A stretch of DNA of 64,000 nucleotides from Verrucomicrobia bacterium Opi.OSU.00C (GTDB lineage Bacteria; Verrucomicrobiota; Verrucomicrobiia; Opitutales; PNEW01): contig PNEW01000002.1 of the NCBI GenBank assembly GCA_002922725.1, positions 5,811 to 69,810 on the forward strand, given 5' to 3'. Each line of letters opens with the position of its first letter. Position 1 is the stretch's first letter. The position numbers were made by a program, and so were the translations under genes. Positions 408 through 55,556 of this stretch are shown here, piece by piece. The notes under the pieces were generated by a model. It ran no database searches. It saw only the letters and a list, made by a program, of their open reading frames with translations, and was not told the DNA's origin.

Positions 408-461
408 TCCCCCCAGTCTCCACCATGGACCTATAGTTTTATAAAGTATAGCAATCATTTC

Positions 462-917
462 TTATTGAGCCGTTATGGTGATAGATTGAAATTCAGAACC
501 AAGAAAGAATTTAGTCTTTTCAAACTCTGGTGAAGTGAAAATAGGTCTGATATTATTTGAAAATCCAAATCTTTCTCTATAAACTATATTAAACAATCCT
601 TTATTAAATTTATCGTCGTTATTTTCGTCATGATAAAGAGCAATCGCATACTCTCCAAAAGGGATTTCAGAAATATGTACAATCACCTTTTTCTCTTTGG
701 GTTTAATTACTATCGCTCGAAATTCTTTACCTTTCTTGCAAAATGTGTCACTAGACGTGTAAAGTGCTATTCTGACGTAACCATTATTATTTCTTAATTT
801 CTGAATGTGGATTTCAATTATTCCTTTTTTTAATTCTGGATTGAACTCTTCAGCATCCAAAAAAATACCCGTTAAACTTAAAAAGATTATTAATTTAATG
901 CTTAAGATTTTTGGCAT
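462..917 (-). CDS. DUF2141-family secreted protein
   Basis: Track ORF 462..962. The C-terminal half is typical of the family (FGEYAIALYHDENNDDKFNKG...RERFGFSNN). Internal Met at 917 gives a signal-peptide-like start, MPKILSIKLIIFLSLTGIFL. Confidence 0.65.
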   Translation of the reverse strand: MPKILSIKLIIFLSLTGIFLDAEEFNPELKKGIIEIHIQKLRNNNGYVRIALYTSSDTFCKKGKEFRAIVIKPKEKKVIVHISEIPFGEYAIALYHDENNDDKFNKGLFNIVYRERFGFSNNIRPIFTSPEFEKTKFFLGSEFQSITITAQ

Positions 918-1395
918 TCTATATGAGCCCAATTGAAATTTTTCCATATAAATCCATATCAAATGTCTAATGCAATAGAAAGATTATGCTGAATAATGCA
1001 AATTGTATATCCTTAAACTAAGATCATAACCTTCAAGTTTTAGATAGAAAAGACAGCAGACATAATTACCTGTTTTCATCAAAATAAGAACGGTGCATCT
1101 AACAGGAAATCCGCATAAAAAAAGTCAAAAGGGGAAATATTCGCCAGAATACAGGAGTTCCTGGTGACATACACTTTTTTGATTGTAATATTGTACATGG
1201 CTTCGGATATGATATGTCTCCCCTTCCTCGTAAATTGTTTATCATCTCTTATAATACTATTGATAATAATCCGCGATCTATGAATAAACCACAACCTTAC
1301 TTGGTTGTAGCCCGCCAGTTTGATATTATTGAGTGAGTCTCTTCGAATATTTTAATCTTCTATAATTATTAATTACTGTGTAGTTTAATCCTGTT

Positions 1396-2262
1396 ATGGA
1401 AAACAAACACTTAACTTCCGAAGAGATGGCTTTTATTAAAAATTTTGGCTATCTTACTTTTCCGGGTTTATTTAAAAATGATATCCATCAAATTATTACC
1501 GAGTTTGAAGCGATTTGGTCTAGTAACGGCGGAGGACATAATGGCAAACTCCATGAAGGGATACAGCGTTCATGCATCGCCTCATTTATAGATCAGAGTG
1601 AATACCTATCCTCATTATTGGATGATCCACGAATAGACAATATGATGACCAGTCTACTCGGCGAAGACTACAATTATACCGGAAGCGATGGGAATTATTA
1701 TGCAGGCAATACTCCCTGGCACTCTGATGGTGGATTCACTGAAGGTCAAAGAATAGCTAAGTGGTACAAAGTGGCATTTTACCTCGACCCATTGACACGC
1801 GAATCTGGTGCTTTAAGGGTAATTCCAGGCAGCCATAAACTCAATGATAGTTACGCAGAGACTTTGGAACAGGAAGTAAAAAACTCATTACGAACGGAAG
1901 AGCAGAAACTTTTTGGAGTTAAGGGGAAAGAGATACCTGCAATGGCTTTGGAAACAAATCCAGGTGATGTCGCAATATTCAACCATGCCACCAAACATAG
2001 CAGTTGGGGAGGCGGGGGGAAACGGCGCATGTTTACCATGAACTTTTCAAGCAGATATAAGCCCAAACATTTACATTATCTTCGTGACGTAATTAGCCGA
2101 AATTCCAGATTTTGGATAGACTCAACCTATGGGCAAATACTACTGAAAACAGCGGGGCCTAACAGGATGCGACATCTTGAACAAGTTCTCGCAAATCAAG
2201 ATCATCTTCCTGAAGAGTCTCGTAAAGCAAAAGAAACGATGAGTGAACCCGCTCGTGGTTGA
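1396..2262 (+). CDS. phytanoyl-CoA dioxygenase (PhyH) family Fe(II)/2-oxoglutarate oxygenase
   Basis: 288 aa. HxD-type metal motif in TPWHSDGG and a distal His in IFNHATKHSS. Length and layout are typical of PhyH-like proteins. Confidence 0.75.
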   Translation: MENKHLTSEEMAFIKNFGYLTFPGLFKNDIHQIITEFEAIWSSNGGGHNGKLHEGIQRSCIASFIDQSEYLSSLLDDPRIDNMMTSLLGEDYNYTGSDGNYYAGNTPWHSDGGFTEGQRIAKWYKVAFYLDPLTRESGALRVIPGSHKLNDSYAETLEQEVKNSLRTEEQKLFGVKGKEIPAMALETNPGDVAIFNHATKHSSWGGGGKRRMFTMNFSSRYKPKHLHYLRDVISRNSRFWIDSTYGQILLKTAGPNRMRHLEQVLANQDHLPEESRKAKETMSEPARG

Positions 2263-2314
2263 TTAACAAGGATTAAATCTCTTAAACAAATATATACGGG
2301 GGTTATGCTAGATT

Positions 2315-3157
2315 TTAATATAAGCTAGTGAGATCAACTTTACAAATATGCCACCCTCCCAAACTAGCAACAAAGAGTTCATAATCATTACGTAAAGCAA
2401 TATTCGTTGGATGATTCAGTTTAGAGTAGATCTTATCCTCAACTAGGAGTTCTGCCTCATTTCTATCATTGACAATGAATATCCGGTTAGGATCAAAACA
2501 GGTGATAAAAAGTTGTCCCTTAGTATTAAGAGCGAGTCCATCTGGAACATGACCGTCTGGCATACGCACATATAGCCGCTTAGGTCCAGCACTACCGTCT
2601 TCATTAATGGACACGGCTGTAACTCCTGGTAAGTAGCTCTCCACAATATAGAGTGTATCACTATCCAAGGACAATGCTATCCCATTAGCAATAATGCAAT
2701 CTTCACTCATCCATAACTCACTTTTACCAGTTGCCAGATCAAATCGCCATATTCCTGGGCCATTTTCCTGGCTGTTTGAAACATAAAGTGCATTACGTTT
2801 TTCATCTACAACTACGTAATTTGGAACAGTCATTTTTTCATCACCGTCAATGCCAACAAGACAATCTAGCTTAACCCCATTCTCATCAAATACCGTTACA
2901 CACTTATGACCAGAATCGCATACATATATACGTCGTTGAGAGTCCATAGCTAACCCCAAATGATAACCATCTGTTTTTGATAACATTTCAATTTCCGAAC
3001 CATCCTTATTAATACGGTATAATTCACCATGTTCACCTCCACACCATATATTTCCGTCCGGATCTACCATAATCCCTTCTGGATGGTTAAGACGGATCTT
3101 GGAATAACGCGCAAAATGAAAAATACTGACAGAATCTAAACTAAGGAGAGGTTTCAT
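2315..3157 (-). CDS. SMP-30/gluconolactonase/LRE-like beta-propeller protein
   Basis: 280 aa. Repeated propeller-blade motifs: PEGIMVDPDGNIW, ANGIALSLDSDTLYIVES, PDGLALNTKGQLFI. Confidence 0.75.
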   Translation of the reverse strand: MKPLLSLDSVSIFHFARYSKIRLNHPEGIMVDPDGNIWCGGEHGELYRINKDGSEIEMLSKTDGYHLGLAMDSQRRIYVCDSGHKCVTVFDENGVKLDCLVGIDGDEKMTVPNYVVVDEKRNALYVSNSQENGPGIWRFDLATGKSELWMSEDCIIANGIALSLDSDTLYIVESYLPGVTAVSINEDGSAGPKRLYVRMPDGHVPDGLALNTKGQLFITCFDPNRIFIVNDRNEAELLVEDKIYSKLNHPTNIALRNDYELFVASLGGWHICKVDLTSLY

Positions 3158-3186
3158 TAGCTAATATTAAAATTATTTGTGGTTTA

Positions 3187-3963
3187 TTATTCTATAAATC
3201 GTGGGTTGGTTGTAAGTCCACCGTCAACCATAAGTTCAGCGCCAGTGACAAAACTCGAATCATCAGAACCAAGAAAAGAAGCAACCCCAGCAACTTCATC
3301 GGGATCTCCAATCCTATTCATCGGATGCATGCCGATCCAGGATTTCATAAGATTTTCTCCGCCTGGTTTCGTAATGAGCTTCGCATTCATTTCCGTGTTG
3401 ATAGTTCCGGGAGATATGCTGTTTACCCGAATGTTTTGGGGAGCAAACTCTTTAGCCAGTTGGCGAGTCATAGAAATAATTGCCCCTTTTGCCGCAGTGT
3501 AAGCAGTGAATGTATCAAGCCCTACATGTGCCGCTGCCGATGCAATATTAATAATCGACCCCCCCTCTCCTTTTTGCATGTAAGGAATGACAAATTTACA
3601 TCCACGATATACACTGGAGAGATTGGTATTAATAACTTTATTCCAATCGTCTTCGGCCATTTCTGTAATTGTAATACCAATGGCTATGGCTGCATTGTTA
3701 CAAAGAATATCGATTTTACCAAAGTGGCCTATTGTTTGCTCAACAGCTGAAGAAACCTCATCTGAATTTCCAACATCACAAGTTATAGCGTGTACTTCTC
3801 CTCCTTGAGCCTGTATGGACCTCGCTTCTTCTCTACATTTTTTTTCCTGGATGTCTATCATTGCAACTTTTGCTCCTTCACGGGCAAATCGTTGTGAAAT
3901 TGCTAACCCTATGCCGTCTGCTCCACCAGTGATTATAGCAACCTTATCTTTTAATTTCCCCAT
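3187..3963 (-). CDS. SDR family oxidoreductase (FabG-like)
   Basis: 258 aa. TGGADGIG cofactor loop, NNAA motif and catalytic YTAAKGA. Confidence 0.9.
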   Translation of the reverse strand: MGKLKDKVAIITGGADGIGLAISQRFAREGAKVAMIDIQEKKCREEARSIQAQGGEVHAITCDVGNSDEVSSAVEQTIGHFGKIDILCNNAAIAIGITITEMAEDDWNKVINTNLSSVYRGCKFVIPYMQKGEGGSIINIASAAAHVGLDTFTAYTAAKGAIISMTRQLAKEFAPQNIRVNSISPGTINTEMNAKLITKPGGENLMKSWIGMHPMNRIGDPDEVAGVASFLGSDDSSFVTGAELMVDGGLTTNPRFIE

Positions 3964-4245
3964 ATTTGATCCTGAATATTAACTAAATTGAGTGTCAAGT
4001 TTTATGCGGAAATCTTATCATCTAATCGATTATTCAATAGTAAAGGGTTATCCACAGTTGGAATTTCTTTGTGCTCACACATAACTCTAACTATTATTTA
4101 AACATTATATTTATTCTTTATGAGCCAAGTAATTGTAATTAGACACCCTAAAGAGCGTAAGAGTAAATGTAGCCTTGCTTCTCTACATAACCATCACCTT
4201 ATTACTTTTTATAATGCACACAAGGATTTCCGTTTTGATGCAACA

Positions 4246-4328
4246 GGCTATATATTACTTACACTGAATACTTCCCCGTTAACATCTCAAGATTCTGGAC
4301 ATTCTTTCATTATCCTGGACAGCACTTG
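4246..4328. repeat. 83-bp direct duplication, copy 1 (flanks the adapter block)
   Basis: Identical to 4550-4632 at 80 of 83 positions by hand alignment. Differences are at 4257, 4263 and 4287. Confidence 0.95.
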
Positions 4329-4550
4329 TCTCTTATACACATCTGACGCTGCCGACGATATGCAGTGTCTAGTTTTCAGCGGGTTCTCGAGAGAGTTGCA
4401 TTAATTGTTTCTGACTCCCCTGCATATACGTTTTTTCCGTTGATCTTGCTTTCATTGGTTACTTATGTCATGGCATTTTTTTTTTCAATAATAAGAAGGC
4501 ATACTAATTTAGAGAGTTCTCGTGGGCTCGGAGATGTGTATAAGAGACAG
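4327..4550. other. Illumina Nextera library construct (adapter contamination / assembly artefact)
   Basis: 4327-4358 is TGTCTCTTATACACATCTGACGCTGCCGACGA, the reverse complement of the read-1 adapter plus Tn5 mosaic end. 4359-4366 is TATGCAGT, the reverse complement of i5 index ACTGCATA. 4486-4509 matches P7 CAAGCAGAAGACGGCATACGAGAT at 17/24. 4510-4517 resembles the i7 oligo GTAGAGAG. 4518-4550 is TCTCGTGGGCTCGGAGATGTGTATAAGAGACAG, the read-2 adapter. Confidence 0.97.
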
Positions 4551-4632
4551 GCTATATATTCCTTACGCTGAATACTTCCCCGTTAACATCACAAGATTCT
4601 GGACATTCTTTCATTATCCTGGACAGCACTTG
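4550..4632. repeat. 83-bp direct duplication, copy 2
   Basis: Second copy of 4246-4328. It begins immediately after the read-2 adapter/mosaic end. Confidence 0.95.
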
Positions 4633-7670: not shown

Positions 7671-9536
7671 GTGGAAACAAAACCATCTGTACCTCCATCC
7701 AATAAATATTTAAAAATGTGGAGAGGTGTCAGAAGAGGATTTACCTTACTCGCCGAAAATAACCAGCTAGATTTCTTTCCTATTCTCGGTGTTTTAAAAT
7801 ATTATAACAAGAGTAAGCTAAAAAGTGATTTTCGCGCCGCGGTAAACGTAGCACTACTTACTTTTCCACAAGGTATGGCTTACGCGTTAATCGCTGGTAT
7901 TCCTATACAGTATGGTGTTTTCGGCGCAGCCATAGCTTCGATTTTAGGGCCGATATTTTCTGGGTCTCGGTATATCACATTGGGTCCGACAAACGCAACT
8001 GCGGTATTGTTCTTTAGTTCATTTCTTGCAATTGGAGGAACGGCATTAGCAAAGGTTGTGATGATGCCACTTCTTCTCTTCATGGTTGGGGTGATTATGA
8101 TTGTTGGAGCTTACCTTCGCGTTGCTAATCTTATCCAATATATTTCACGCAGTGTGATATCCGGGTATATAACAGGTGCCGCTATTCTGATTATCGCCAA
8201 CCAGCTAAAAAGTGTACTTGGATTTGAAATAGAAGGAGCCTTTACATTTTATCATGTTTGTCGACAGACGTTAGCTTCTTTGCCCCTTATCCATTGGCCT
8301 TCAGTTATAATAAGTATAATTACAGTTATTGTATATTTCTACCTCTTGAGGAAATTTAAAAAGCTTCCTACCGTCGCCATCACATTGCTAATTATGGGCG
8401 TAATCGCAATCGTTATTAATTATTTAATTCAATCACCCCTATTTGCTCACATAGATTTGCCCTCCCTATCTATGCTCAATTCGATCAATGCTAGTAATTG
8501 GGTTTTTAGTCCTCCTGATTTTAATTTCGAATGGATAAGTCAATTAGCAAGTTTAGCATTGGCTATTTCCTTTATCGCCATTTTGGAAGGAGCATCAATC
8601 GGTAAATCATTAGCTGCTCGTTCAGGTGATCACCTTGATACTAATCAAGAGATGTTAAGTATTGGGGTCGCTAATCTTTGCTGTGGCTTCCTTTCTGGAA
8701 TGCCTGCTTCTGGTTCACTGACCCGATCAACACTCAATTTTATGTGTGGTGCTGCAACTAGATGTTCAAATATTATTACCGGAATTTTCTGTATAATCGG
8801 TGTCTTTAGTTTTGGTCCATTCATCAGCTACATCCCTAAAGCATCTCTTGCAATAGTTGTAATTATTATTGGAGCATCACTTATCAATCGGCACACGATA
8901 CAGGTAGTTATGAAAGCTACTCGGTCAGATGCGATTGTTTTCATAACCACCTTTATTGGGACACTGCTTTTCCGTTTAGATACGGCAATCTATTTTGGTG
9001 TAGGAATATCTATTCTACTTTTCTTACGTAAAGCAGCAATACCAGAGTTAATAGAATATACTTTCACGAACGAAGGTCATTTAACCCAACTTGAGAACAA
9101 GACAAGAACAAACCCTGAAATTTCAATCGTCCACATCGAAGGTGAATTATTTTTTGGTGCGGTTGAGCTCTTTCGGGATCAAATGCGGAGAATTGTTGAA
9201 GACCCAAACTTGAAAATTGTTGTATTGAAGATGCGTAACGCTCACCACTTAGATGCAACCAGTGTTTTAGAATTGGAAGAACTTACTATATACATGAAAG
9301 ATCTAAATCGACACCTACTTTTAAGCGAGACAAGAAAAGATGTCATTCGTGTCTTAAAAAATTCAGGGTTATTGAACATAATTGGCCGTCAAAATATATT
9401 CCCTGACATCACACAAAATCCTACTTTGTCCACTGCTAGAGCTCTTAAACGAGCACAAAAGTTACTAGGCGACAAGAAGGCAAAAATAAGCATTTACGCC
9501 GATAAATCAAAATTAGCAAAGATAGATCCTATGTAA
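7671..9536 (+). CDS. SulP family inorganic anion (sulfate) permease with C-terminal STAS domain
   Basis: 621 aa with a GTG start. Multi-pass hydrophobic core with SulP-type FPQGMAYALIAG, then a soluble STAS-like tail (IVHIEGELFFGAVE...HLDATSVLELEEL). Confidence 0.9.
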   Translation: METKPSVPPSNKYLKMWRGVRRGFTLLAENNQLDFFPILGVLKYYNKSKLKSDFRAAVNVALLTFPQGMAYALIAGIPIQYGVFGAAIASILGPIFSGSRYITLGPTNATAVLFFSSFLAIGGTALAKVVMMPLLLFMVGVIMIVGAYLRVANLIQYISRSVISGYITGAAILIIANQLKSVLGFEIEGAFTFYHVCRQTLASLPLIHWPSVIISIITVIVYFYLLRKFKKLPTVAITLLIMGVIAIVINYLIQSPLFAHIDLPSLSMLNSINASNWVFSPPDFNFEWISQLASLALAISFIAILEGASIGKSLAARSGDHLDTNQEMLSIGVANLCCGFLSGMPASGSLTRSTLNFMCGAATRCSNIITGIFCIIGVFSFGPFISYIPKASLAIVVIIIGASLINRHTIQVVMKATRSDAIVFITTFIGTLLFRLDTAIYFGVGISILLFLRKAAIPELIEYTFTNEGHLTQLENKTRTNPEISIVHIEGELFFGAVELFRDQMRRIVEDPNLKIVVLKMRNAHHLDATSVLELEELTIYMKDLNRHLLLSETRKDVIRVLKNSGLLNIIGRQNIFPDITQNPTLSTARALKRAQKLLGDKKAKISIYADKSKLAKIDPM

Positions 9537-9721: not shown

Positions 9722-11986
9722 ATGAAAGAAATATTTAGGATATTTATTACTTATTCTTCGACAGTAATGTACGCATCATTTTGCCTTGGTTTTATATTAT
9801 TCCCGCACCTCTTAATTGCAAATAATGCAGATGATCTTCAAATCGTGCCCACACAAAGCAATCGACTTATCAATGAACAATCCCTCTATCTTTTGCAACA
9901 TGCGTTTAATCCAGTTGATTGGTACCCTTGGGGAGAGGAAGCATTTGAAAAAGCCCGGGTAGAAGATAAACCTATCTTTTTATCGATTGGCTATTCCACC
10001 TGCCATTGGTGTCACGTTATGGAACGTGAATCGTTTTCCAATCCGGAAATTGCACGGCTGATGAACAAATATTTCGTCAATATAAAAGTTGATCGAGAAG
10101 AACGTCCAGACGTAGATCAAGTATATATGCGTTTTGTCCAAACAACTACAGGTAGTGGTGGATGGCCATTAAATGTTTGGCTTACTTCCGATCTTAAACC
10201 CTTTGTCGGGGGAACTTATTTCCCCTCTAAATCGAATTATAAGCGTCCAGATTTTTCTTCTGTCTTAAATTCAATAGCTAAAATGTGGAATACTGACCGT
10301 GAAAAAATATTGAAAATAAGTAACGAAATCCTGACACATCTTAGCCCATCAAAAACTGATCCATATAGTTCTGAAAATTTAAATTTAATCAGCCTAAAAA
10401 ATGCATACACTATTTACAAAGATACATATGATAAAAACTCTGGCGGGTTTGGAGCTGCACCCAAGTTCCCTCACCCAGCATCATTAAATTTTCTTCTACG
10501 TTATTCAGTTGGCAAAGATATTGAAGATGTCGATAAGCAATTAGCCAAAGATATGGTTTTTTCCACTCTTCGAAATATTGCACAGGGTGGAATCAATGAC
10601 CATGTGGGTGGAGGATTTCACCGTTATTCAGTGGATGACCAGTGGCGCATGCCACATTTTGAAAAAATGCTCTACAATCAAGCTCAACTTTCAAGCGTAT
10701 ACCTAAATGCTTACCAACAAACTAGAGATCCTTGGTACGGTGATATTGCAAGGAATGTTTTGCGCTATGTTTATAATCAGCTTACCGATCCTGCAGGCGG
10801 CTTTTACTCTGCGGAAGATGCCGACAGCCTTCCGACTCCCAATGCCAACGAAAAAAAGGAGGGGGCATTCTATACATGGACAATGAACGAAATTATCGGA
10901 ATCCTGGGAAAAGAAACCGCAAATATTTTCTCTTACCATTACGGCTTTAAGAACAAAGGAAATGTCCTTTTTCAAAATGATCCTCGGGAAGAATTCATCG
11001 GTAAAAACATTCTATACGAAAAGTATTCGCTCAAAGATACAGCATTAAAATTTAACCAGAAGGAAGAAGCTCTAGAAATTCTTATCAATCGATGCAAGGA
11101 TCGCCTACTCAAAGAACGTAACAAACGTGAGAGGCCACAGCTTGATGATAAAATTATTACTGCTTGGAACGGTTTAATGATCTCTTCCTATGCCCGTGCT
11201 TCTGTTATTCTTCAGGATCCGGTTTATTTAGAAAGAGCATCGGCAGCCGCAGGTTTTATTCGCAATAATCTTTATCAAGAAAGTAATGGCCGCTTGCATC
11301 GTTCCTATCGCAACGGGTCCTCTCAAGTAGGAGGATTCCTTCAAGATTATGCTTATCTTATACAAGGTTTGATCGACCTTTATGAGACTTCTTTCAATAT
11401 TCATTGGTTACAGTGGGCACTTCAACTTCAAAAAAAGCAGGATATCCTATTTTGGGACGATGTTACTGGAGGTTATTTCACTGTTACAGGAGAAGACGCA
11501 AGTATTCTACTTCGTATAAAAGATAACTTTGATGGAGCCATTCCTTCACCAAACTCGATTGCTGCTATGAATCTCTTACGTCTGTCACAAATAATAGATG
11601 ACTCAAGCCATCGAAGACGCGCTGAAAAAACAATTCGCGCTTTTAGTCCAAGCTTTATAAAATCCCCCCGATCAATGCCACATATGCTGTCAGCTATGGG
11701 TTTCTATCTTGATACCCCTAAACAAATAATTCTCTCCGGCGATAGGTTTGCTCCCACCACAAAAGCAATGCTCAAGGAAATTTACCGCCACTATTTACCT
11801 AATAAAGTAATTCTTTTGGCTGACGGTGCAGAAGGACAGGAATTCCTTAATCAGAAACTTGCTATTTTAAAAACGATTAATCCCGTAGACGGCGAAACAA
11901 AGGCTTTTGTATGTGAAAATTATACATGTGATATGCCAACAACCCAGGTGGCAACATTGACCCGTCTACTAAAAAGATCGGAATAA
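9722..11986 (+). CDS. thioredoxin-domain protein of the DUF255/YyaL (SPATA20-like) family
   Basis: Track ORF 9692..11986 starts at TTG; the first ATG is at 9722. Contains [16 protein letters not shown] plus a long alpha/alpha-toroid-like C-terminal region. The N-terminal hydrophobic segment suggests export or anchoring. Confidence 0.85.
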
Positions 11987-15492: not shown

Positions 15493-15655
15493 TCTATATG
15501 TAAATCATTAATTAACTGAATGAATTATTTAAAATAATTATATTAAAAATGAACATTATTAAATTCTAAATGATTAATAGTAAATTTTTATATATCTCTA
15601 TTGAGAATACCTCAATTTCTATAAGAGTATTGTTTATACCTTTTTACCCACAAAT

Positions 15656-17359
15656 TTAAGGAAAAGAAAAGCTATGATCGGAAATAAAATAAAAAAATGT
15701 CCAATTGGAAGCACCTAGGGCAACAAATATATACCCAAGGATGGAGACGATTATCATGGTCGTCAAAGCATAGGGTAGTTGAGTTGCTACGTGTTTGAGA
15801 TGATCACACTCCGATGAAAATGATGACAGAACCGTGGTATCACTGATTGGACTACAATGATCACCAAAAATAGCCCCATCAAGAACAGCAGCTGCAGCGA
15901 GATAAAAAAATAGGTTACCACTATCTGCAGCATTCTCCATTGAATGCATCAAGGGTAAAATTACAGGGATCATAATACCCATCGTTGCCCAACTAGAGCC
16001 TGTGGAAAACGAAATGATTCCAGCAAGAACAAAAGTGAACAAGGGAAGCACCCATAGTGGTAATCTGTTATCTAATAGAGAAACAAGGTACGTATCCGTA
16101 CCGAGAGTTTGGCCAATTGTACTCATCGCCCAGGCCATGAGAATTATAAATAATGCCAACTTCAAAGTTTTAATCGATTGGGAAAAAGCCTGAAAAGATT
16201 CTTTAATTGAGAGAATGCTTTGGCTCCAAGCGAGAAAGATCGCGATAATACTTCCGGCAACGGATGACCAGAAGAGTATGCTCATCATTTCTACACCTGA
16301 TTGAACAGCCGTAGTAATAAATCGTCCCCACTCACTTAATGTAAAAAGGGAATAATTTTCACCCATAGTTAATAATTGATTACGACCCAAAATAGTGAAA
16401 CCAATAAAGATTCCCATTATTAGAACAAAGAGAGGTAGAGCCGCATTAATCCAGCGGCGAGGGACTTCAATTCGCGGTTCAACATAAGCATTTTTACGCG
16501 TTAATAGTTGTGCGTCATCTTCAAATAATTTACCTTCAACTGTGGCTCGTTTTTCAGCTCGATACATGGGACCATAATCACGCTCCATAAGAGAATTTAG
16601 TAAAATAAAGATTAAAGTCCCCCAACAATAGAATCGTAAAGGAATGAGTTTTAGGAAAATGGCATAGCCACCAATATCCATCCCAAGATTGTGCGAAGCT
16701 TCACTCAACATCCAAACTTCAAAACCTATCCAAGTAGATATAAATGCTAATCCCGCTACTGGAGCAGTAGTAGAGTCTACTATATAAGCAAGTTTTTCAC
16801 GAGATATTCTCCATTTATCAGTCAAGCCACGCATCGTTGAACCAACAACAATAGTGTTTGAGTAATCATCAAAAAAAACAATCAAACCGGCGAACATTGT
16901 GGTTACCTTAGTCAAACGCCTACTTTTTGCGAAACGTGAGAATATCGTAACTAGACCATCGATACCACCACTTTTATAGGTTACATGAATCAAACCAACT
17001 AAAGTGAATAGAAAACCAAATATATAGATGTTAAATTGGTTTGTAAGATTACCCCATATGAACTGGTTCAGCCCTGAAGAAATAACTATTAAAGGTGATG
17101 GGCCAAAAGCCAAAAAAGCCCCAAGCAAAACAGCACTCGTCAATGCCCAAACTAAGGTTCGAAAAAAAATGGCAACATTAACTGCAAGCAGAGGGGGTAA
17201 AATAGAAGTCCAGTGGCCTACAAGTTTACCCTCCAATGACCCAGGAATATTCGTCGGTAAATTTGCAAATATTCCACATATGATGCCTCCAGTTAATACA
17301 AAGTAAAGACAGTCCTTAAGCTTTCGCATATGCAACCTTGATTCTTTCATAGAAAACAA
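15656..17359 (-). CDS. Na+/H+ antiporter NhaC-family membrane transporter
   Basis: 567 aa polytopic membrane protein. NhaC-like segments include VDSTTAPVAGLAFISTWIG and GDHCSPISDTTVLSS. Confidence 0.8.
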   Translation of the reverse strand: MFSMKESRLHMRKLKDCLYFVLTGGIICGIFANLPTNIPGSLEGKLVGHWTSILPPLLAVNVAIFFRTLVWALTSAVLLGAFLAFGPSPLIVISSGLNQFIWGNLTNQFNIYIFGFLFTLVGLIHVTYKSGGIDGLVTIFSRFAKSRRLTKVTTMFAGLIVFFDDYSNTIVVGSTMRGLTDKWRISREKLAYIVDSTTAPVAGLAFISTWIGFEVWMLSEASHNLGMDIGGYAIFLKLIPLRFYCWGTLIFILLNSLMERDYGPMYRAEKRATVEGKLFEDDAQLLTRKNAYVEPRIEVPRRWINAALPLFVLIMGIFIGFTILGRNQLLTMGENYSLFTLSEWGRFITTAVQSGVEMMSILFWSSVAGSIIAIFLAWSQSILSIKESFQAFSQSIKTLKLALFIILMAWAMSTIGQTLGTDTYLVSLLDNRLPLWVLPLFTFVLAGIISFSTGSSWATMGIMIPVILPLMHSMENAADSGNLFFYLAAAAVLDGAIFGDHCSPISDTTVLSSFSSECDHLKHVATQLPYALTTMIIVSILGYIFVALGASNWTFFYFISDHSFSFP

Positions 17360-21300: not shown

Positions 21301-21787
21301 ATGAAACTAAGCACCGATTCGAGAAAAACGCTTAATACCGTACTCAACAAACATGGCCTCCGTTCAACCCAGCAGCGTGAACAAGTATACTTTACCTTAT
21401 TGAATAGGAATGACCACCCAACTGCAGAGACGATTTACAAACGTTCAAAAGAAATGATGCCAGCAATTTCTTTAGCAACTGTTTATAATTGTCTGGACAC
21501 ACTTGTTGATTGTGGATTAGCCCGCCAGGTAAAACTTCGAGCGTGAATCCACGCGCTACTGTCCAATGGAGGCAGATAACTTACACTACGCTCACTTTCA
21601 CTGTAAATATACGGGAAAAGTACACGATATACGCATCCCTGCTATGGTAATAAAGATGCTACAAAAAATTATGCCCAAAGGGTTCCGTGCGGAAAAAATT
21701 GAACTATGTTTCCGAGGCACTACTCCATGTGAGAATAAACCTTCTAGAGAAGTATTACTTTCATCACCTATTAAAAAATTAAAGTGA
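21301..21787 (+). pseudogene. fur: Fur-family transcriptional regulator, frameshifted in this assembly
   Basis: The winged-helix half (RSTQQREQVYFTLL...HPTAETIY...ISLATVYNCLDTLVDCGLARQV) is in frame 1 and stops at 21544-21546. The metal/dimerisation half (NFERESTRYCPMEADNLHYAHFHCKYTGKVHDI...) continues in frame 2 to 21787. Deleting one A of AAAA 21531-21534 gives a 161-aa Fur-sized protein. Confidence 0.8.
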
Positions 21788-31832: not shown

Positions 31833-34767
31833 ATGCCGCCTAACATCCGTCTATACTCGGCTTCTAGCTTTGAACAAGCTTGGGAAGAGTTACTCGTCCC
31901 CTGGTTTAAAAATGAAGTGCGAATAAATTGTTGCAATTTCTTGCCTTGTGCTGCCGTAGTTCCCTCACATGCAATTACCAGCCTAATAAAAACTCGCCTT
32001 ATTAAGGCTCGGCTACCTCTCTTCGGTATTCATATCTGGACTCCAGAGGAGCTGGGAAAGTATTTGCGTAAAAGTTGTCTTCCTAATAATAAAATTGCAC
32101 TACGTGAGGATTTGCTCCTGCTTATGGCAACAGCAGCTAGTGATTTCTCTGAATTTCCTGTCGGTGCAGCTATTGCTGCCGACCCAGATCAACTCCTACA
32201 CGCTTATGACACATTGCAGCATGCGGGGCCAACCTAGTATGTCCCTAAAAGGTGAAATCGTACAGAAAATTGTTGTCCGTTTTGAGAAATTGCTTTTTTT
32301 ATCTGGACTGTTAAGTGAATCACAAGCGAATCGTAAAATCGCTGAAGTGGGATCCATACATATGTTGCATCTTTCTTCCCTATTAATTTATGGTTTTGGA
32401 GCTCGTGAATGGCGACAGCGTTTTCTTCTTAGGGGAGCAATAAGTATCTCAGAAAAGATTTCATTCTGCCTACCAGAAAGTCGATGTGAGAGTGAACGAT
32501 TGTGGCAAGCAACATGGGAAGATGACCTTGGGGAAATAGAACTAATCTCGGGCTGCGAACAAACTGATGGGCCTTATAATAGAAGAGCCCAAAATATTGA
32601 GATGGATCGTCTCGAAGAAAAATCTTCAAGTGAAAATTCTATTCAATACCATATAGCAGCAAATGTTCAGTTGGAAGCTAAAGCCGTAGTGATTCAGAGT
32701 ATAGATTATCTTCTACAACCATCCTGCAATCGTCTCGGAATTGTCGTCCCAAAGGAATCTGCTTTAGCCCGGGAAATAGCCGCTTGTTTAATCCATTTTA
32801 AAATCCCACACCATGATACGATTGGAACCTATCCGATTCAATCTGAAAAGCAATCGTTACTCAATCGTTGGGCAGAATTCCAAATGGATGCTCGATTACC
32901 GCATATAATAAACTTTCTCCGTCTTCGCCGTGAACACCAATTGATTAGTGCAAACGACGCTGCTAAAATTGAGCACTCACTTAAAAAAGCATTTGATACG
33001 GTTATCACTGATGACCTCATGGTCATACGTGAATGGTTGACTGAAAGTGAGCCAATGGGTGTAGGGTTAAAATTCCTCGAAGACTGGCCACAAATTCCCA
33101 CTAAAGCATCTTTCTCTCAGTTTCTATCTTTGGCCTCTAAAAGCCTACCCTTTATCGACTTGGATGAGTTTCTAAGCCATCAGTATACTAATGGCTTAGA
33201 AATGACGATCGATTATCCAATAGACCGGCGACATTTTCTTAAATGGTTAATTGAAATTAATCAAACACCGGGAAAGACACGTCATATTATTGGGCAAAAC
33301 CCGCTAGCATCACTCCAATTACTCACCTATGAACAAATTCAGGATCAATCTTTTACTCATCTCATAATCGCAGGGTTAAACTATGGAATGTGGCCTCAAG
33401 AGACACATCCCAACGCGTTTCTTCGCGAAACGGTAATTGATGATCTCAATCTTGGAGTGATTGCCCAGGGTTCACAAGGTGAAGGACATCGAGTTGTTAA
33501 GAAGGGGTTTGGCCTCATCCTTACCGCAGAAGAGAAAAGATCTCAAGCTCTGGCACAGTTTATTAATCTTCTTGAAAGAGTGAAGATAGGATTAACAGTT
33601 TCAGCAAGCTTATCCTCGGAAGAGGATTATAGTCGATCTGTTCTTATTAGCGATTTTCTTCTGCGCTTATACTGGGTGGACAATGGTATTTTTCTCAATG
33701 ATACTCACTTAAAAACCTTGAGTAAAAAAACTGATACCTGGTGTAAAAGATTGCAAACCAAGGAAGTGGTTTGCAAATCAGATATCGATCACATGATCAA
33801 TGTATTTAAAATACGTCGCAATCCTAGTAAAAGATACGGCGAATATGAATTCAGCTTTCAAACCCCCCCTCAAGGTGGCCTCCATTTATCCTGCAAAAGC
33901 TGGGAAAAACTTCTATCAAGACCAGCCACCGTTTGGTTCGAGGAAGTGTTGGGTGTAGTGAAATCGCCTGATTTTAACCATATCATTTCCCACCCTTTAT
34001 CTGTCGGTAACTGGGTGCATCATTGGATACATATGTCAACGTGTCAGAATTTTTCTCCTCTTCCGAAGAAAGAAGATTGGGGGACACAGGTAAGAGCCTC
34101 TGCTAACATTACTTTTGAAAAAGTATCACGCGCCTATGACCGAGCTAATCGTAGTTTACCTGATTGGTGGCGCTCCTTGTGGTCAGAAGCTTTTCAACAC
34201 AGTAAAAATTTAGCTGATACCGTGGCTGTAATTAGAGACTGGCCGTTCGTCGCCACAGAGTTGAACCTGAAAAGTAAAATCACTTCTCTAAATGACAACC
34301 TAAAATTACCCCTAAATGGACGTATTGACCTTGTCTTTTCTAACAAGGAAATTTCCGATATTAATAATGAAACAATATTACCTGATTCAGTGGATTTTTG
34401 GGTCATCGATTTTAAAACAGGTCGAGAAAAAGAACTTAGTCCTACATCACTCAAAAAAGGCGATGGATTACAAATTGCTCTTTATATGCTTGCCCTCCGG
34501 GCTCGAGGCGGTCGCCGAATAATAGCAAGTGTCTTGCGACAAAATAGTGAACCAATCCCGCAAATTGATCTGAGTACCATTATTAATATAGATGAATTAT
34601 GGCGTGGTCTCTCCGCTATCCAAAAGAGTGGTGTAATAGGTATGTCCGGACCTATCTATTCTCGTTATGCCTTCGTTGGGGATTATCCAATCGCTACACT
34701 TTCTATTAACAGTAATATTCTCAAAAAAAAATGGATGCACTCTCATCCACTCCTCCCTCTACCTTAA
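31833..34767 (+). pseudogene. addB: AddB-like PD-(D/E)XK nuclease subunit of an AddAB-type helicase-nuclease, frameshifted in this assembly
   Basis: Track ORFs 31833..32237 (frame 0) and 32095..34767 (frame 1) form one gene. The N-terminal part (AAVVPSHAITSLIKTRL...IHIWTPEELGKYL) stops at 32235-32237. The rest (MSLKGEIVQKI...LLIYGFGAREW...) continues in the +1 frame. Deleting one G of GGGG 32225-32228 gives 977 aa. The C-terminal nuclease motif is GRIDLVF...FWVIDFKTG...LQIALY. Confidence 0.7.
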
Positions 34768-37700: not shown

Positions 37701-37901
37701 CTCAAAAAAGAACAATGGATTATTATTGATTGGAAAACACATCAAATAGCAGGTCCCGAAATGACCACTAAATTGTACGAACAATTTAAACCACAAATTG
37801 ATGCCTATGCTAGTGCTCTTAGGCATATATATTGTCAACCAGTAAGTGCCTACCTCTATCCAACAGCACTTGGTCAGTTGATAGAAATCAATAAAAGCTG
37901 A
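34731..37901 (+). CDS. addA: AddA-like UvrD/REP superfamily-1 helicase with C-terminal PD-(D/E)XK nuclease domain
   Basis: 1056 aa. Walker A APAGVGKTKA, motif II VILDEAQDT, GDPQQSIYG, CHKAKGLEWD and YVSMTRAR. The C-terminal nuclease motif is LIDFVAYD...IIIDWKTH...QIDAYA. An alternative start at 34788 avoids overlap with the upstream gene. Confidence 0.8.
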   Translation: MDALSSTPPSTLIDVKSLNMDTILSDNVIRQRFVNEHEQNFSVVAPAGVGKTKAIVDRIVNIALTDGERNHSRLRRLVVVTYTKQAADEMHHRTRDAIMQKKVSPEVLGRLNQVYFGTIHSYCLELLRQHGTLIGLPSTIDVTENDELLWSRFLYHTDQLSNILPKKVERHFLRHTQLEPLYLLARKIRVKSVNKQLNTFAHYPDLDLTSLLQFPPNKRSKGKIEMVQKQLQRWLKAMRDDEGFIPPPICEIGGKEFQDLCKASFQPLRDWLSEVGSFLIAHVSNSYRNFRVSQGVLTYDDLIDLTADILKDKTVGAEIRAEGKHVILDEAQDTDPGQFEVLTEIARPESAQGIWLKKGGIPPGTGRFCMVGDPQQSIYGSRTDLNFYQHVHKKLLKDAQGEELFFKVTFRCDEKIVEGINLFFPSILNGKGELGEQVKFVPLKARPNCGSGQIIRKILELPQEMEIKKNHQAITLAYIQAFVGWLKNLEPNDLRARDWSEVAILCPRNEWLEALNRELKASAFSTQVLSRTEQVRTIPSYAWFTALMLVISEPENAFEIAGLLREVFGISDHDLVTYYQYWKKNPGRFPPTAHALQILHTVKHNSIVAEKLNLLTHARQHALTLPLHDAVTYLVDKIHLRERLSKLPFSDSTESQILIDNFITQSVMAETDRMSLSDWTHSLIEKMSDQIKSEPAKDGHIQLLSCHKAKGLEWDAVLLPFFSRPIGFALKNYPQLFYLKGENRSLLAIDKHHEHESYKIQAEREKEKELDRLLYVSMTRARKTLVLFNDEVFFSSNKSSFTERLKISFGKTNNKIWTNLPKSNHPETRGKRAPAPTFSEKIKDITTSLDLARNHAQGKFNRVTPHSLVKSVSALITDRNEPEIILGHEFSEKSLLSSATEYGNWWHKMMEINHWEQDIVSWKNHCSLNVKSTVCPSSERGKKEIDLFFKSDLVEQLLVSKYKIFTEAPLLWSLDNITVYEGLIDFVAYDLKKEQWIIIDWKTHQIAGPEMTTKLYEQFKPQIDAYASALRHIYCQPVSAYLYPTALGQLIEINKS

Positions 37902-40661: not shown

Positions 40662-40667
40662 AAAAGC

Positions 40668-48244: not shown

Positions 48245-50086
48245 ATGCGATATAAATTTACGATATTACTAATTATTATTAATCTCAGCTTATTCAGCTT
48301 GATATTTTATGTTGATAAGAAAGCTGCCACGATTGGTGCATTTGAACGTGCTAAGCGATTAGTATTTCCACCTGGATTTGTAGAAGATAGTGATCGCCTC
48401 GAGATTGAAGGTCAAAAGCTGACACATAATTGGGTCTTGTTACGTAAAATGGAGCAATGGATGCTCGATAGGCCCATAAACTGGCCCGCAAATATTTATG
48501 CTGTAACACGGATGCTAAATCAACTCAAATTTCTTGAATGGGAGACTCGTTTTTCTGTTAGTGAAATTAAAAAAACGGGGCGAAGCCTAGCAGATTATGG
48601 TTTGGAGGAACCCAAACTTACACTTTCACTGAGCCACAGTGGCAAAGAAAAAACCCTTAAAATTGGTGAATCAACAGAAATAGGTAACCGCCTCTATATT
48701 CTTTCACCTGAGGAAGAAGAAATTTATGTTGTAACCCGCGAGTTACTTCAAAGTATCTCAGTCGACCTTCAAGATCTGCGCAACCAGAATATTTTCGATA
48801 TTCCTCTCTTTGAAGTACGTTCAATAAGTATTCAGATTACAAATCCAAGTAATCTTAAGGTACGTCTCGCACGTAATGACAAAAATTGGGTTTTTGAATC
48901 GCCCATCCAAACGGAAGCTGATTCTCAACGCGTCATGAATACGATTAACCGCCTGACCAGACTAAAGGTAATTAATTTTCAAGGAACTGGTCGTGCACAG
49001 GAGATTTTAGCTAATCCTTCCTTTCGTATAACACTTGAAGGTAATAACCGAAGACAGACAGTTCTCGTTGGTGAAGAACTGACAGAAAATGGGCAAAAGA
49101 GTTATCAGGCAAGAATGGAATCCAATCCGACGGTTTTTACTCTTGCTGCTGCACCTATTCATAACCTACGTGATGTACAAGAAAGTCTAAGGGATAAAAG
49201 TTTTGTCGATATAAACCCTTCTGAACTCACTTCTATTGAAATTGTGATGTCTAATGCTTCCGTTGAACTACAAAAATTAGAAACCGGAATATGGCAGGTC
49301 CTACAGTCAAATAATACTGGAGATTTTTCAACTTGGACAGCGGATCCTCAATTACTCAACGAAGTAATTAGCGCACTTCATGAAATGGAAGCCGTTCAAT
49401 TCATTAGTGATGCGCCATCCGTTGCGGATCTTGAAAAATATGGGTTTAATAACCCCCAACGCCAAGTCATACTTCAAACTCAAAATAAATCGACTCTTCT
49501 TATAGGAGACCTAGATCCTAAATCAAGATTACTGTTTGCAAAGATGATTGATTCCCCCACTATATATAAGATAAAAAAGGACATCCTCCATCTACTTAAA
49601 ACACGAGCATTATATTATCGATTGAGGGTAATTGAAGAGCTGCCTCAAGGAGCACGTGTACAAAGGATCTCCCTTACTGATTCAGTAAGTGGAACCGTAA
49701 TTTTTGATAAAAAAATCGATCCCTCTAGTGAATCTTGGTCTAAGGTGCTTAAAGAATACCCAGAGAAAAAAAAGAAAGCTATTTTAGGGCTAACAGATAC
49801 AATGAGGAAATTTGAAGTAAAAGAATATATACGTAACACTTTCAGTAGTCGATTTAAACTTGGAGATAAAGAGTTTTCATGGAGATATCATTTAAATACC
49901 GAAATTCATTTACCGGGCGGCAATGAAGATAGAATACAAAACCGCACTTTTTCTTTTAGTGAACGACTAGGTGGAACAACCCAAATCGGGGGATCCCCCG
50001 ATTCCAATGTGATTTTTACTATTAAACAAAACCTGATCGATTCACTATTTGAATTGACCTTTGACCACACCCCCCCCGCATGGTAA
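48245..50086 (+). CDS. DUF4340-like protein (N-terminal anchor, repeated periplasmic domains)
   Basis: 613 aa with an N-terminal TM (FTILLIIINLSLFSLIFYV). Sits directly after a GldG-family gene, the usual DUF4340 context. The frame after the C8 run 50070-50077 stays open to 50213. Confidence 0.6.
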   Translation: MRYKFTILLIIINLSLFSLIFYVDKKAATIGAFERAKRLVFPPGFVEDSDRLEIEGQKLTHNWVLLRKMEQWMLDRPINWPANIYAVTRMLNQLKFLEWETRFSVSEIKKTGRSLADYGLEEPKLTLSLSHSGKEKTLKIGESTEIGNRLYILSPEEEEIYVVTRELLQSISVDLQDLRNQNIFDIPLFEVRSISIQITNPSNLKVRLARNDKNWVFESPIQTEADSQRVMNTINRLTRLKVINFQGTGRAQEILANPSFRITLEGNNRRQTVLVGEELTENGQKSYQARMESNPTVFTLAAAPIHNLRDVQESLRDKSFVDINPSELTSIEIVMSNASVELQKLETGIWQVLQSNNTGDFSTWTADPQLLNEVISALHEMEAVQFISDAPSVADLEKYGFNNPQRQVILQTQNKSTLLIGDLDPKSRLLFAKMIDSPTIYKIKKDILHLLKTRALYYRLRVIEELPQGARVQRISLTDSVSGTVIFDKKIDPSSESWSKVLKEYPEKKKKAILGLTDTMRKFEVKEYIRNTFSSRFKLGDKEFSWRYHLNTEIHLPGGNEDRIQNRTFSFSERLGGTTQIGGSPDSNVIFTIKQNLIDSLFELTFDHTPPAW

Positions 50087-50237
50087 AGGTCTAGCCAAGG
50101 AGCCTCTTCCTCCTTTGATTGATCAGGATGAAAATGAAACTATTCCTCTAGAATCACCTGATTCATCTATCATTATTTCTCCACACCCAATCTTGAAGGA
50201 ACAAAAACAATAACTGGTATTTATTGATTTTAACCAG

Positions 50238-53012: not shown

Positions 53013-53210
53013 GCTCAATTATAGAGTTGTGTATTTATAAACCTTCTCGATCTTGGTAGTCAACTAATGGTTTTCAGTTCATCTTCCAATTTTATATAGC
53101 TCTCACATAAATTTTTATGTAAATTAAGTGATTGCCTCAAAAGGCTAAATCCTTTCTAATCCTTAGTTCTTTAAACCTATCCAACGATCAATTTGAACAA
53201 AAAATAAACC

Positions 53211-53690
53211 TTGGACTTTAAATTAATAAAGCAAATTGTAGAATTAATGAAAAGATCCGGTCTCACTGAATTTGAGGTCGAAGAAGAAGGCCTAAAAATT
53301 CGTATTTGCCGAAAGAATGGGGTCGATACTCCTCAGATCTTTACTACAGCTACCTCTCCACCTTATCCTGTTATCTCATCTGAATTAGGGCAGAAAGAGA
53401 TTGTCACTCAGAACGAACAAAAGGGGGCAGAAACTCAAGAAGATAAAAATATTATTTTTATAGATTCACCGATGGTGGGGACTTTTTATCGTTCACCTAC
53501 CCCCGATAGTCCCCCTTTTATCGAAGTAGGAGCTGAAGTGAATACTGAAACAATAGTGTGTATTGTTGAAGCGATGAAGGTAATGAATGAAATTCAAGCA
53601 GAGGTTAAAGGTAAAGTTATTGAAATACTCGTGGAAAATGGTGCGACAGTTGATTACGGACAACCAATTTTTAAACTAAAAAAAGCCTGA
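53211..53690 (+). CDS. accB: acetyl-CoA carboxylase biotin carboxyl carrier protein
   Basis: 159 aa with a TTG start. Pro/Ala-type linker and the biotinylation motif VEAMKVMNEI. Confidence 0.9.
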   Translation: MDFKLIKQIVELMKRSGLTEFEVEEEGLKIRICRKNGVDTPQIFTTATSPPYPVISSELGQKEIVTQNEQKGAETQEDKNIIFIDSPMVGTFYRSPTPDSPPFIEVGAEVNTETIVCIVEAMKVMNEIQAEVKGKVIEILVENGATVDYGQPIFKLKKA

Positions 53691-53700
53691 GTATTAAATC

Positions 53701-55089
53701 ATGTTTGAAAAAATTCTCATCGCTAATCGCGGCGAGATTGCACTGCGAATTATTCGCACGTGCAAAGAGCTCGGTATTAAAACAGTCGCTGTTTATTCTG
53801 AAGCTGATGAACAGTCTTTACATGTGCAACTTGCAGATGGAGCCATTTGCATCGGACCAGCTCAAAGTTCGGAAAGTTATCTTAAGCCTGACCGTATAAT
53901 CAGTGCGGCAGAAATTGCCGATGTGGATGCTATTCACCCTGGTTATGGTTTCCTTGCAGAAAAAGCAGAATTTGCAGAACAATGTGAAAGTTGTAATATT
54001 AATTTTATCGGCCCCCCATCTGATGTAATAAGTAAGATGGGTGATAAATCTATAGCGCGCGAAACTATTAGGAAATCTCGCATACCAGTAATCCCTGGAA
54101 GTGAAGGCACTCTTGAATCTAGGTCAGAGGCCCTTAAAATTGCCCAAAAAATTGGTTTCCCTGTAATAATTAAAGCTGTAGCTGGTGGTGGCGGCAAAGG
54201 TATGCGCTTAGCGCGTAATGCAATGACATTCTCCAAAGAATTTGATACCGCACAGTTAGAAGCTGAGAAAGCCTTTGGTGATAATTCTGTTTACGTTGAA
54301 AAGTATATAACTAATCCAAGGCATATTGAGTTTCAGATCATTGCCGACAAGCAAGGAAAAACCTTACATCTAGGAGAACGTGATTGCTCGGTTCAACGAA
54401 GATATCAAAAACTAATAGAGGAAGCACCTTCCCCATTTCTCACACCAGATCTACGTAAAAAGATGGGCCGTTATGCCATCCGTGCAGCAGAGGCCTGTAA
54501 CTACGTAAACGCAGGAACTATCGAATTTCTTGTCGATAAAGACGGTAATTATTATTTTATCGAAATGAATACCCGCATACAAGTTGAACATGGGGTTACG
54601 GAAGAAGTAACAGGAATAGATTTAATTAAGGAACAAATACTAATTGCCGCAGGTGAATCGCTGAAGTTTGATCAACGGGACATAAAAATTAATCAACATG
54701 CTATCGAAACCAGAATCTGTGCAGAAGATCCAGATCGCAATTTTTCCCCCAGCCCAGGTGAAATCACCCTTTATTACCAACCTGGTGGTCAAGGCGTACG
54801 AGTTGACACACATATATATGGCGGTTATTATATTCCAACTCATTATGATAGTATGATTGGGAAACTTATTACCACGGGGAAAACACGCGATCTAGCTCTG
54901 GATCGAATGCATCGCGCACTTGGCGAATATATTATTCGTGGTGTAAAAACTACCATTCCTTTTAATATGGCAGTAGTGAATGATCCCATATTTCGTCGAG
55001 TTGGTGCAACTACCAATTTTATCGATGAGTTTCTCAACGGTAAACCTAAAAACTTTTTTAACAATAAACCCATTAGGACCCATGAGTAA
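53701..55089 (+). CDS. accC: acetyl-CoA carboxylase biotin carboxylase subunit
   Basis: 462 aa. [42 protein letters not shown]. Confidence 0.95.
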
Positions 55090-55556
55090 GAAAAAATCAA
55101 ATAAAAGGGATGATTCAGACAAAGCTGTAAAGATTCGTGATATTCCCACCATTAATGAAGAGTCATCCTCAATGGGTGAAATCAAAATTAACCATACAGT
55201 GATCGCAAGTATCGTAAAACTTGCTGCTCTTGAAGTTCCTGGTGTCGTCATGGTTGCTGGTGGCTTCGTTGATGAACTTGCGGGTATGTTTTCAAAAAAA
55301 AGATTCGGGCACTGGGATTCGAGTCGAAGAAAATGAGAATGGTCACTACGAAATCATGATCCGAGTCATCCTTTCCTTTGGAATTGAGCTTGCAAGAACC
55401 GCTTACGAAATCCAAACCTCAGTGCGCGACCAAGTTAGTAAAATGACAAATAAAGATGTCGCTAAAGTTGATGTTATTATTGATGGGGTGAAGACACACG
55501 AATCAACCACAGAAGAAGATAAAAATAATTGGGTTGAACCTGAACATACTGACTAA
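55082..55556 (+). pseudogene. Asp23/Gls24 (YqhY-like) family protein, frameshifted in this assembly
   Basis: From ATG 55082 (8-nt overlap with the accC stop), frame 2 reads ...[42 protein letters not shown] and then stops after 9 more codons. Frame 0 continues [27 protein letters not shown]...VKMTNKDVAKVDVIIDGV to 55556. Deleting one A of the A8 run 55294-55301 gives 157 aa with standard Asp23 architecture. Confidence 0.8.

Follow-up and report, generated by a model that had tools for sequence, protein, structure and literature searches.

INTRODUCTION

Mononucleotide runs vary in length in known contingency loci, where the varying tracts include those in the range of 7-8 bases, and runs such as A8 and C8 could permit some slippage of a polymerase. 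Genes that are split by one-base errors in homopolymers are described for error-prone sequencing chemistries, as set out in two reports (PMC12007338, PMC8812927). For Illumina sequencing, indel rates of 3-5e-6 per base and an insertion error of ~3e-6 per base were reported (PMC4787001).

Here, we analysed a window of 64,000 nucleotides from a deposited 71.7-kb contig (PNEW01000002.1, positions 5,811 to 69,810) of a marine Opitutales bacterium (Verrucomicrobiota). The original prediction for this window, made from the letters alone, had claimed five broken reading frames, in each of which the downstream frame was shifted by +1 relative to the upstream frame at a homopolymer run. It had ascribed them to a systematic insertion artefact of one sign rather than to five real pseudogenes.

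RESULTS

Six private insertions in mononucleotide runs

We compared the window with metagenome contigs from independent assemblies of its own species, a marine Opitutales; these are 99.2-99.8% identical to it and together cover the whole window except the adapter junk. Fragments of 100% identity (L012-L015) occur in TARA and Station ALOHA samples. When the GTDB representative genomes were scanned for the species, the matches were Opitutales MAGs at 75% identity only and did not include the species itself. Whole-window alignment to the conspecific contigs resolved six one-base indels private to the window, every one of them an insertion that extends a run, and zero private deletions (insertion-only sign in 6/6, two-sided P = 0.031). 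The affected runs are as follows:

15691..15697, minus strand: A7 run (T7 on the coding strand), A6 to A7; frame shift at about codon 552 of 571 of a Na+/H+ antiporter; A6 in 6/6 covering contigs
21531..21534, plus strand: A4 run, A3 to A4; frame shift at codon 77 of a Fur-family gene; A3 in 10/10 covering contigs and in the JGI contig L048
31019..31024, no strand assigned: T6 run, T5 to T6; intergenic, between an epimerase and an OsmC gene; T5 in 4/4 covering contigs
32225..32228, plus strand: G4 run, G3 to G4; frame shift at codon 131 of an AddB-like PD-(D/E)XK gene; G3 in 5/5 covering contigs
50070..50077, plus strand: C8 run, C7 to C8; frame shift at codon 609 of 655 of a DUF4340 gene; C7 in 3/3 covering contigs
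55294..55301, plus strand: A8 run, A7 to A8; frame shift at codon 71 of 157 of an Asp23-family gene; A7 in 8/8 covering contigs

At each of the six sites the shorter run is present in every conspecific contig that covers it (3/3 to 10/10), and removal of the six insertions restores the conspecific sequence exactly. In the DNA alignment the extra base falls inside the run, giving the pairs A3/A4, G3/G4, C7/C8 and A7/A8 at the four predicted sites that break a frame. The runs are not drawn evenly from the window: four of the six insertions lie within runs of at least 5 bases, and such runs make up 4.1% of the sequence (P ~4e-5). Two of the insertions, at 15691-97 and 31019-24, had not been listed in the original prediction; at the latter site no gene is called in the relatives.

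Five of the six private insertions lie in coding sequence, three of them within the first half of conserved genes, compared with one of five other indels, a difference that is weak (Fisher P = 0.08). Indels of natural appearance, common to several assemblies or private to others, were found in intergenic sequence at 7698, 31089, 56181 and 58312 and in the last codons of accC at 55067. The indel at 58312 (A to AA) had at first been taken for a seventh insertion, being private to the window against one contig; AA is common to two other contigs, and the difference is, as judged from the alignments, a private deletion or polymorphism of contig DRR683878_17785.

Repaired genes read through in one frame

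The genes hit by the coding insertions, together with the neighbour of the AddB-like gene, are listed below:

15634-17350, minus strand: Na+/H+ antiporter gene, C-terminus changed by the A7 insertion
21301..21787, plus strand: Fur-family regulator gene upstream of sufCBD, in fragments of 81 and 73 aa; 161 aa when repaired
31833..34767, plus strand: AddB-like PD-(D/E)XK nuclease gene, in products of 134 and 848 aa; 977 aa when repaired
34731-37901: UvrD-type helicase gene, after the AddB-like gene
48245..50213, plus strand: DUF4340 gene in a GldG-like ABC-transporter-auxiliary cluster, 613 aa as assembled; 655 aa when repaired
55082..55556, plus strand: Asp23-family gene downstream of accB and accC, with an N-terminal fragment of 84 aa; 157 aa when repaired

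After removal of the extra base, the proteins align colinearly with distant homologues, and likewise with full-length Pfam models. The 161-aa Fur protein matches positions 1-118 of 121 of PF01475 in one stretch across the junction, and the 157-aa Asp23 protein matches positions 2-108 of 108 of PF03780, also across the junction; gene calls on eight independent contigs give the intact 157-aa form. Repaired, the AddB-like protein is colinear with nine homologues at 37-99% identity. In the DUF4340 protein, the 46-residue tail behind the junction equals that of conspecific proteins except for two residues, and the intact tail is also carried by further conspecific proteins. The repaired C-terminus of the Na+/H+ antiporter is identical to that of its relatives. 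Thus, for the Fur, AddB-like, DUF4340 and Asp23 genes, the expectation that repaired translations would align with orthologues and read through family-typical sequence was borne out.

For each of the four predicted breaks that are real, 3-11 independent conspecific contigs carry the run one base shorter and the gene intact. An exact look-up among ~15 billion proteins found the 613-, 81-, 73-, 134-, 848- and 84-aa fragments only on one NCBI contig of 71,736 bp; the intact 655-, 161- and 977-aa forms were found on contigs of many samples in ENA, Logan and JGI. When the JGI metagenomes were searched for the inserted Fur allele with a pattern accepting A3 or A4, the allele was not found, and the one contig that matched carries A3. 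A further fragment, P0035, carries the window's own N-terminal variant residues of the AddB-like protein and reads through the junction intact. No further decay was found in the five broken genes: each holds one lesion, shared with no other contig, and no other indels or stops.

The first predicted site is an open frame

All five homopolymers named in the original prediction lie exactly where it had placed them, and at four of them (A4, G4, C8 and A8) the break and its +1 direction hold. The fifth is not a break:

409..414, minus strand: C6 run, encoding a conserved Gly-Gly at the N-terminus of a 392-aa CDP-alcohol phosphatidyltransferase-family protein

Here the minus-strand ORF is open from an ATG at 458 through the C6 run, which dismisses this site as a frameshift in need of repair. 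The conspecific contig L011 has the identical C6 and aligns with no gap across positions 1-4328 of the window. The N-terminus as assembled, MIAILYKTIGPWWRLGGMTLFERNLRYL, aligns with 17 homologues and is conserved in homologues down to ~33% identity. The reference-free test behind the prediction, in which adjacent ORFs in frames n and n+1 meet at a run, is therefore useful but imperfect: in this window it produced one false positive and missed two events, one near the 3' end of a gene and one intergenic.

An adapter chimera in the same contig

The untrimmed adapters that had been pointed out in the assembly are real, and consist of the following element:

4329..4546, no strand assigned: untrimmed Nextera adapter read-through, interrupting a 152-aa hypothetical gene

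The stretch reads, in order, as the reverse complement of the mosaic end, the Read-1 adapter and the i5 index, then junk, then the i7 index, the Read-2 adapter and the mosaic end. It is flanked by an 86-nt duplication of the genome (4243-4328 and 4547-4632), and was absent from the conspecific contigs L011, L023 and L024 in which it was looked for. The adapter stretch proves independently that reads were poorly cleaned for this contig, and it shows that uncleaned read ends of low quality became part of the consensus. It says little about the error mode, since its errors are mostly substitutions and the insertion bias is left unexplained by it. Three substitution errors lie within the duplicated 86 nt beside the adapter.

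Substitutions and unaffected runs

The substitutions private to the window comprise 53 non-synonymous and 53 synonymous changes, where chance would make 78% of them non-synonymous (P = 1.5e-10), and look as if they had been shaped by selection. No trace of selection is seen on the indels, whereas purifying selection acts on the private substitutions, so that the two classes of change have different histories. We found no excess of private or of non-synonymous substitutions in the window relative to other assemblies. A consensus of generally low quality is thus unsupported: non-synonymous private substitutions are not enriched over other assemblies, and beyond the adapter region there is no sign of low quality. 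In the window, private indels stand to private SNPs as 6:133, which is not far from the 3:105 of the other assemblies pooled.

The window has roughly 4,000 runs of 3 bases or more, of which six are affected. Of its 16 length-8 runs, 14 agree with the relatives and only two are affected, so that the process is not systematic. The proposal of a systematic same-sign insertion artefact stands in its sign, since all six private indels are insertions, and falls in its regularity: the artefact is sporadic.

DISCUSSION

Based on these comparisons, we consider it very probable that the one-base run insertions in this window are an assembly or sequencing artefact and not a biological feature. The consensus of this deposited contig would then contain sporadic single-base over-calls in mononucleotide runs, through which six extra bases (A6 to A7, A3 to A4, T5 to T6, G3 to G4, C7 to C8 and A7 to A8) would have entered. 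Because five of these fall within coding sequence, gene callers would split or truncate the Fur, AddB-like nuclease, DUF4340, Asp23 and Na+/H+ antiporter genes, all five of which are most likely intact in the organism itself. The original preference for an artefact over real pseudogenes thus appears justified at four of its five sites, where neither the inserted alleles nor the fragments occur outside one NCBI contig, and does not apply to the first site, which is no frameshift.

We infer that the insertions arose in amplification, sequencing, assembly or polishing and not in the cell. Plain Illumina indel error is insufficient as the cause: at the published rates ~0.2 insertions would be expected per 64 kb even at 1x coverage, compared with the six observed. 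As these rates are too low, another step would be responsible; candidates are amplification, read tails of low quality, the merging or polishing of contigs, and a second sequencing chemistry.

An alternative that we regard as unlikely is that the cell or clone which was sequenced had truly acquired the insertions, as mutations of very recent date, for instance in a mismatch-repair-deficient or dying lineage or in a single-cell genome, and that the genes are new true pseudogenes. A change in run length is indeed a classic replication-slippage mutation, the private indel-to-SNP ratio resembles that of the other assemblies, and standard Illumina error rates do not readily yield these sites. However, mutation would have to account for six insertions with zero deletions, and for the position of five of the six in coding sequence, with Fur, Asp23 and a recombination nuclease among the genes hit, in a lineage whose substitutions were filtered by selection. 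The inserted alleles are, moreover, present in no other contig, the P0035 fragment with its shared AddB-like N-terminal variant residues included, and if the five broken conserved genes of these 64 kb were extrapolated, the genome would hold hundreds. A more specific form, in which all six +1 run expansions are real, very recent and confined to one cell or clone of a free-living marine Opitutales, such as a mismatch-repair-defective mutator, and in which polymerase slippage on A8 and C8 might partly rescue Asp23 and DUF4340, seems to us quite unlikely.

The long tracts taken by themselves (C7/C8 in DUF4340, A7/A8 in Asp23 and A6/A7 in the antiporter) could be phase-variable contingency loci, switched on and off by slipped-strand mispairing. 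Tracts of 7-8 bases fall in the variable range, real length variation is conceivable for runs as long as the C8 of DUF4340 and the A8 of Asp23, and two of the sites change C-terminal tails only. We consider phase variation highly improbable, as 3, 8 and 6 independent conspecific contigs, sampled in different oceans and years, have C7, A7 and A6, respectively, without exception, the remaining 14 length-8 runs of the window show no variation, and the tracts lie not at 5' ends or promoters but at codons 609 of 655, 71 of 157 and about 552 of 571. The A3 to A4 and G3 to G4 sites are beyond its reach altogether. That programmed +1 ribosomal frameshifting or transcriptional slippage yields full-length proteins from the sequence as assembled is scarcely credible, even though one and the same +1 correction would mend all four shifts and a polymerase could slip somewhat on A8 and C8, because a programmed shift should be conserved, all conspecific contigs and distant homologues encode the proteins in a single frame, and A4 and G4 are not slippery sites.

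The relevance of an assembly or sequencing artefact is one of quality control only. Inferences of pseudogenes or gene loss from the public record would err, with five intact genes under-reported and adapter sequence included. Insertion-only, run-only errors in a contig that contains Nextera/Illumina reads are atypical for the chemistry, and the assembly pipeline merits a check.

How do these insertions compare with the known systems? As in prfB-type +1 frameshifting or transcriptional slippage, a full-length product needs a +1 change of frame; here, however, the shift occurs in no orthologue, and A4 and G4 lack a shift-prone context. With contingency loci they share that a one-base change in a tract of 7-8 bases switches the frame, but tract length does not vary among conspecifics, two of the runs that were hit have a length of only 3 bases, the genes belong to the housekeeping type and the tracts do not lie near the 5' end. 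Adapter chimeras of de Bruijn graph assemblies have their counterpart in the read-through loop and flanking 86-nt duplication of the same contig, although this adapter junk is a separate lesion and none of the six insertions adjoins it. Compared with gene splits caused by homopolymer errors, the setting differs in that the contig contains Illumina Nextera reads, a chemistry in which indels are rare, and in that the errors are sparse and insertions only, while the pattern is alike: a run-length error leaves adjacent ORFs in neighbouring frames, and the error is found and repaired by means of close relatives.

Results

Five homopolymer runs had been named in the original prediction as places where a reading frame breaks and is mended by the deletion of one base. 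The runs themselves are exactly as described (C6 at 409-414, A4 at 21531-21534, G4 at 32225-32228, C8 at 50070-50077 and A8 at 55294-55301), and at the last four the break holds and is due to an inserted base that is private to the window, whereas the frame at the C6 run is open. Three-frame translation at these four sites bears out the proposed +1 continuation: the ORF stops just past the run and family-typical sequence resumes one base on. After the one-base deletion, the Fur-family protein has 161 aa and matches positions 1-118 of 121 of PF01475 in one stretch over the junction, the Asp23-family protein has 157 aa and matches positions 2-108 of 108 of PF03780 over the junction, and the AddB-like PD-(D/E)XK and DUF4340 proteins have 977 and 655 aa, respectively.

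To place these breaks, we compared the window with conspecific metagenome contigs from marine samples (TARA, Station ALOHA-type runs, DRR6838xx), which were retrieved with intact neighbouring proteins as handles. They share 99.2-99.8% nucleotide identity with the window and cover all of it except 4329-4546; loci were grouped by contig before indels were counted. Of the named relatives, Opitutales MAGs come nearest, at 75% amino acid identity in the AddB-like protein. Six insertions form the complete set of one-base indels private to the window, and no private one-base deletion was found against the covering contigs.

One-base insertions private to the window (position; change; shorter run among covering contigs; location)
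15691; A6 to A7; 6 of 6; minus-strand Na+/H+ antiporter gene
21531; A3 to A4; 10 of 10 by alignment, and an 11th found in a scan of JGI contigs; Fur-family regulator gene
31019; T5 to T6; 4 of 4; intergenic
32225; G3 to G4; 5 of 5; AddB-like gene
50070; C7 to C8; 3 of 3; DUF4340 gene
55294; A7 to A8; 8 of 8; Asp23-family gene

The insertions at 15691 and 31019 had been overlooked in the original prediction. The former shifts the frame over the last ~20 codons of the antiporter, which has 567 aa as assembled and 571 aa in relatives; its repaired tail equals that of the relatives exactly.

By exact-sequence look-up, the broken products (613-aa DUF4340, 81-aa and 73-aa Fur, 134-aa and 848-aa AddB-like, 84-aa Asp23) are confined to one NCBI genome contig of 71,736 bp. 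Intact forms of 655, 161 and 977 aa occur on metagenome contigs from ENA, Logan and JGI, among them scaffolds of 155,666 and 258,200 bp, and the intact 157-aa Asp23 protein is called on eight independent contigs. An AddB-like fragment from another contig (P0035) has the N-terminal variant residues of the window and is unbroken across the junction. Two short products from ENA contigs were seen as well: a 73-aa Fur C-terminal product with the same start methionine as the window fragment (P0030, 1,204 nt), and an 85-aa Asp23 N-terminal product with an aberrant tail unlike the window's (P0041, 621 nt). They may reflect either the ends of those contigs or additional breaks.

The Fur-family protein (21301-21787, upstream of sufCBD) has HFHCKYTGKVHD in place of the CxxC motif found in many Fur proteins. 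Since this sequence is identical in all conspecific contigs, it is a genuine feature of the regulator.

At the C6 run, the minus-strand ORF is open from an ATG at 458, three bases past the stop of the upstream DUF2141 gene, right through the run. The conspecific contig L011 aligns without gaps to 1-4328 and yields, from the matching start, a 392-aa CDP-alcohol phosphatidyltransferase-family protein. The N-terminus MIAILYKTIGPWWRLGGMTLFERNLRYL, with its run-encoded Gly-Gly, aligns to 17 homologues at identities down to ~33%. The open ORF, the gapless alignment and the conserved N-terminus together rule out a frameshift here.

Indels common to several assemblies, or private to other assemblies, act as natural variation should.

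Indels and breaks outside the private set
7698, ahead of the SulP transporter gene; one copy of the 10-nt unit CCATTCAATA in the window against a tandem pair in three conspecific contigs; apparently natural copy-number polymorphism between genes
31089, 56181 and 58312; natural-looking single-base indels, all intergenic
55067, last codons of accC; one base that six other contigs have is deleted in the window and in contig DRR683878_17785

The deletion at 55067 gives an AccC of 462 aa instead of 458 aa, the longer form overlapping the Asp23 start, and is probably a real polymorphism because two independent assemblies carry it. At 58312, AA in the window and two other contigs stands against A in DRR683878_17785, which is either intergenic variation or an error of the latter assembly. 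In contig L038 (ERZ23495038 scaffold_64, 11368-11883, ~60445-60960 of the window), a glyoxalase gene of 171 aa elsewhere has an in-frame TAA, and gene calling splits it into pieces of 56 and 76 aa; the window's assembly is thus not alone in having an occasional broken gene.

The claim of untrimmed adapters was borne out by a Nextera read-through at 4329-4546.

Parts of the adapter chimera
4326-4344; reverse complement of the mosaic end
Next; Read-1 adapter and i5 index TATGCAGT
Middle; degraded junk including T10
End, last position 4550; i7 index near GTAGAGAG, then Read-2 adapter and mosaic end

The stretch interrupts a 152-aa hypothetical gene, is missing from three conspecific contigs (L011, L023, L024) and is flanked by an 86-nt duplicate of genome sequence (4243-4632 overall), whose second copy bears three private substitutions that are errors. 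The chimera is an independent sign of poor read cleaning.

Discussion

We consider it very probable that the insertions are artefacts in one deposited contig and represent no biological feature. Five broken conserved genes per 64 kb would, we infer, amount to hundreds per genome, an implausible load for a free-living marine bacterium with uniformly intact relatives at 99.5% identity. The term 'systematic' did not survive, as the insertions are sporadic: 14 of the 16 length-8 runs in the window match relatives.

Recent real mutations in one cell are disfavoured, given that every inserted allele is private and all six changes have the same sign (two-sided P = 0.031). Four of the six lie in runs of at least five bases, though such runs make up 4.1% of the window (P ~4e-5). 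Selection points the same way. Across the 44.8 kb for which three or more samples give coverage, private substitutions (53 synonymous, 53 non-synonymous, 27 intergenic) are far from the random expectation of 78% non-synonymous (P = 1.5e-10), so the lineage's point differences have been filtered by selection; their profile resembles that of private substitutions in other assemblies. The six insertions, unlike the substitutions, have not passed through selection: five fall within coding sequence, three of them before the midpoint of a conserved gene (codons 77/161, 131/977 and 71/157). A dense cluster of ~14 mostly non-synonymous private substitutions in 400 nt of the SulP transporter gene (8091-8494) may be due to a recombined tract or to a divergent allele, not to error. 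Programmed frameshifting fails, as no orthologue carries the shift. Phase variation at the tracts fails as well: in 3-8 independent contigs their lengths are constant, and at two sites the run has just 3 bases.

Where could artefactual insertions come from? Candidate sources are slippage of the polymerase in amplification, a component of flow-based or long-read data, and merging or polishing that favours a base over a gap. Illumina insertion errors are homopolymer-associated and poorly flagged by quality scores, and arise at ~3e-6 per base (PMC4787001). At this published rate, 64 kb would be expected to hold ~0.2 insertions even with 1x coverage, and no excess of substitution errors was seen in the window outside the adapter region; together with the insertion-only, run-only profile, this implicates a step other than Illumina base calling.
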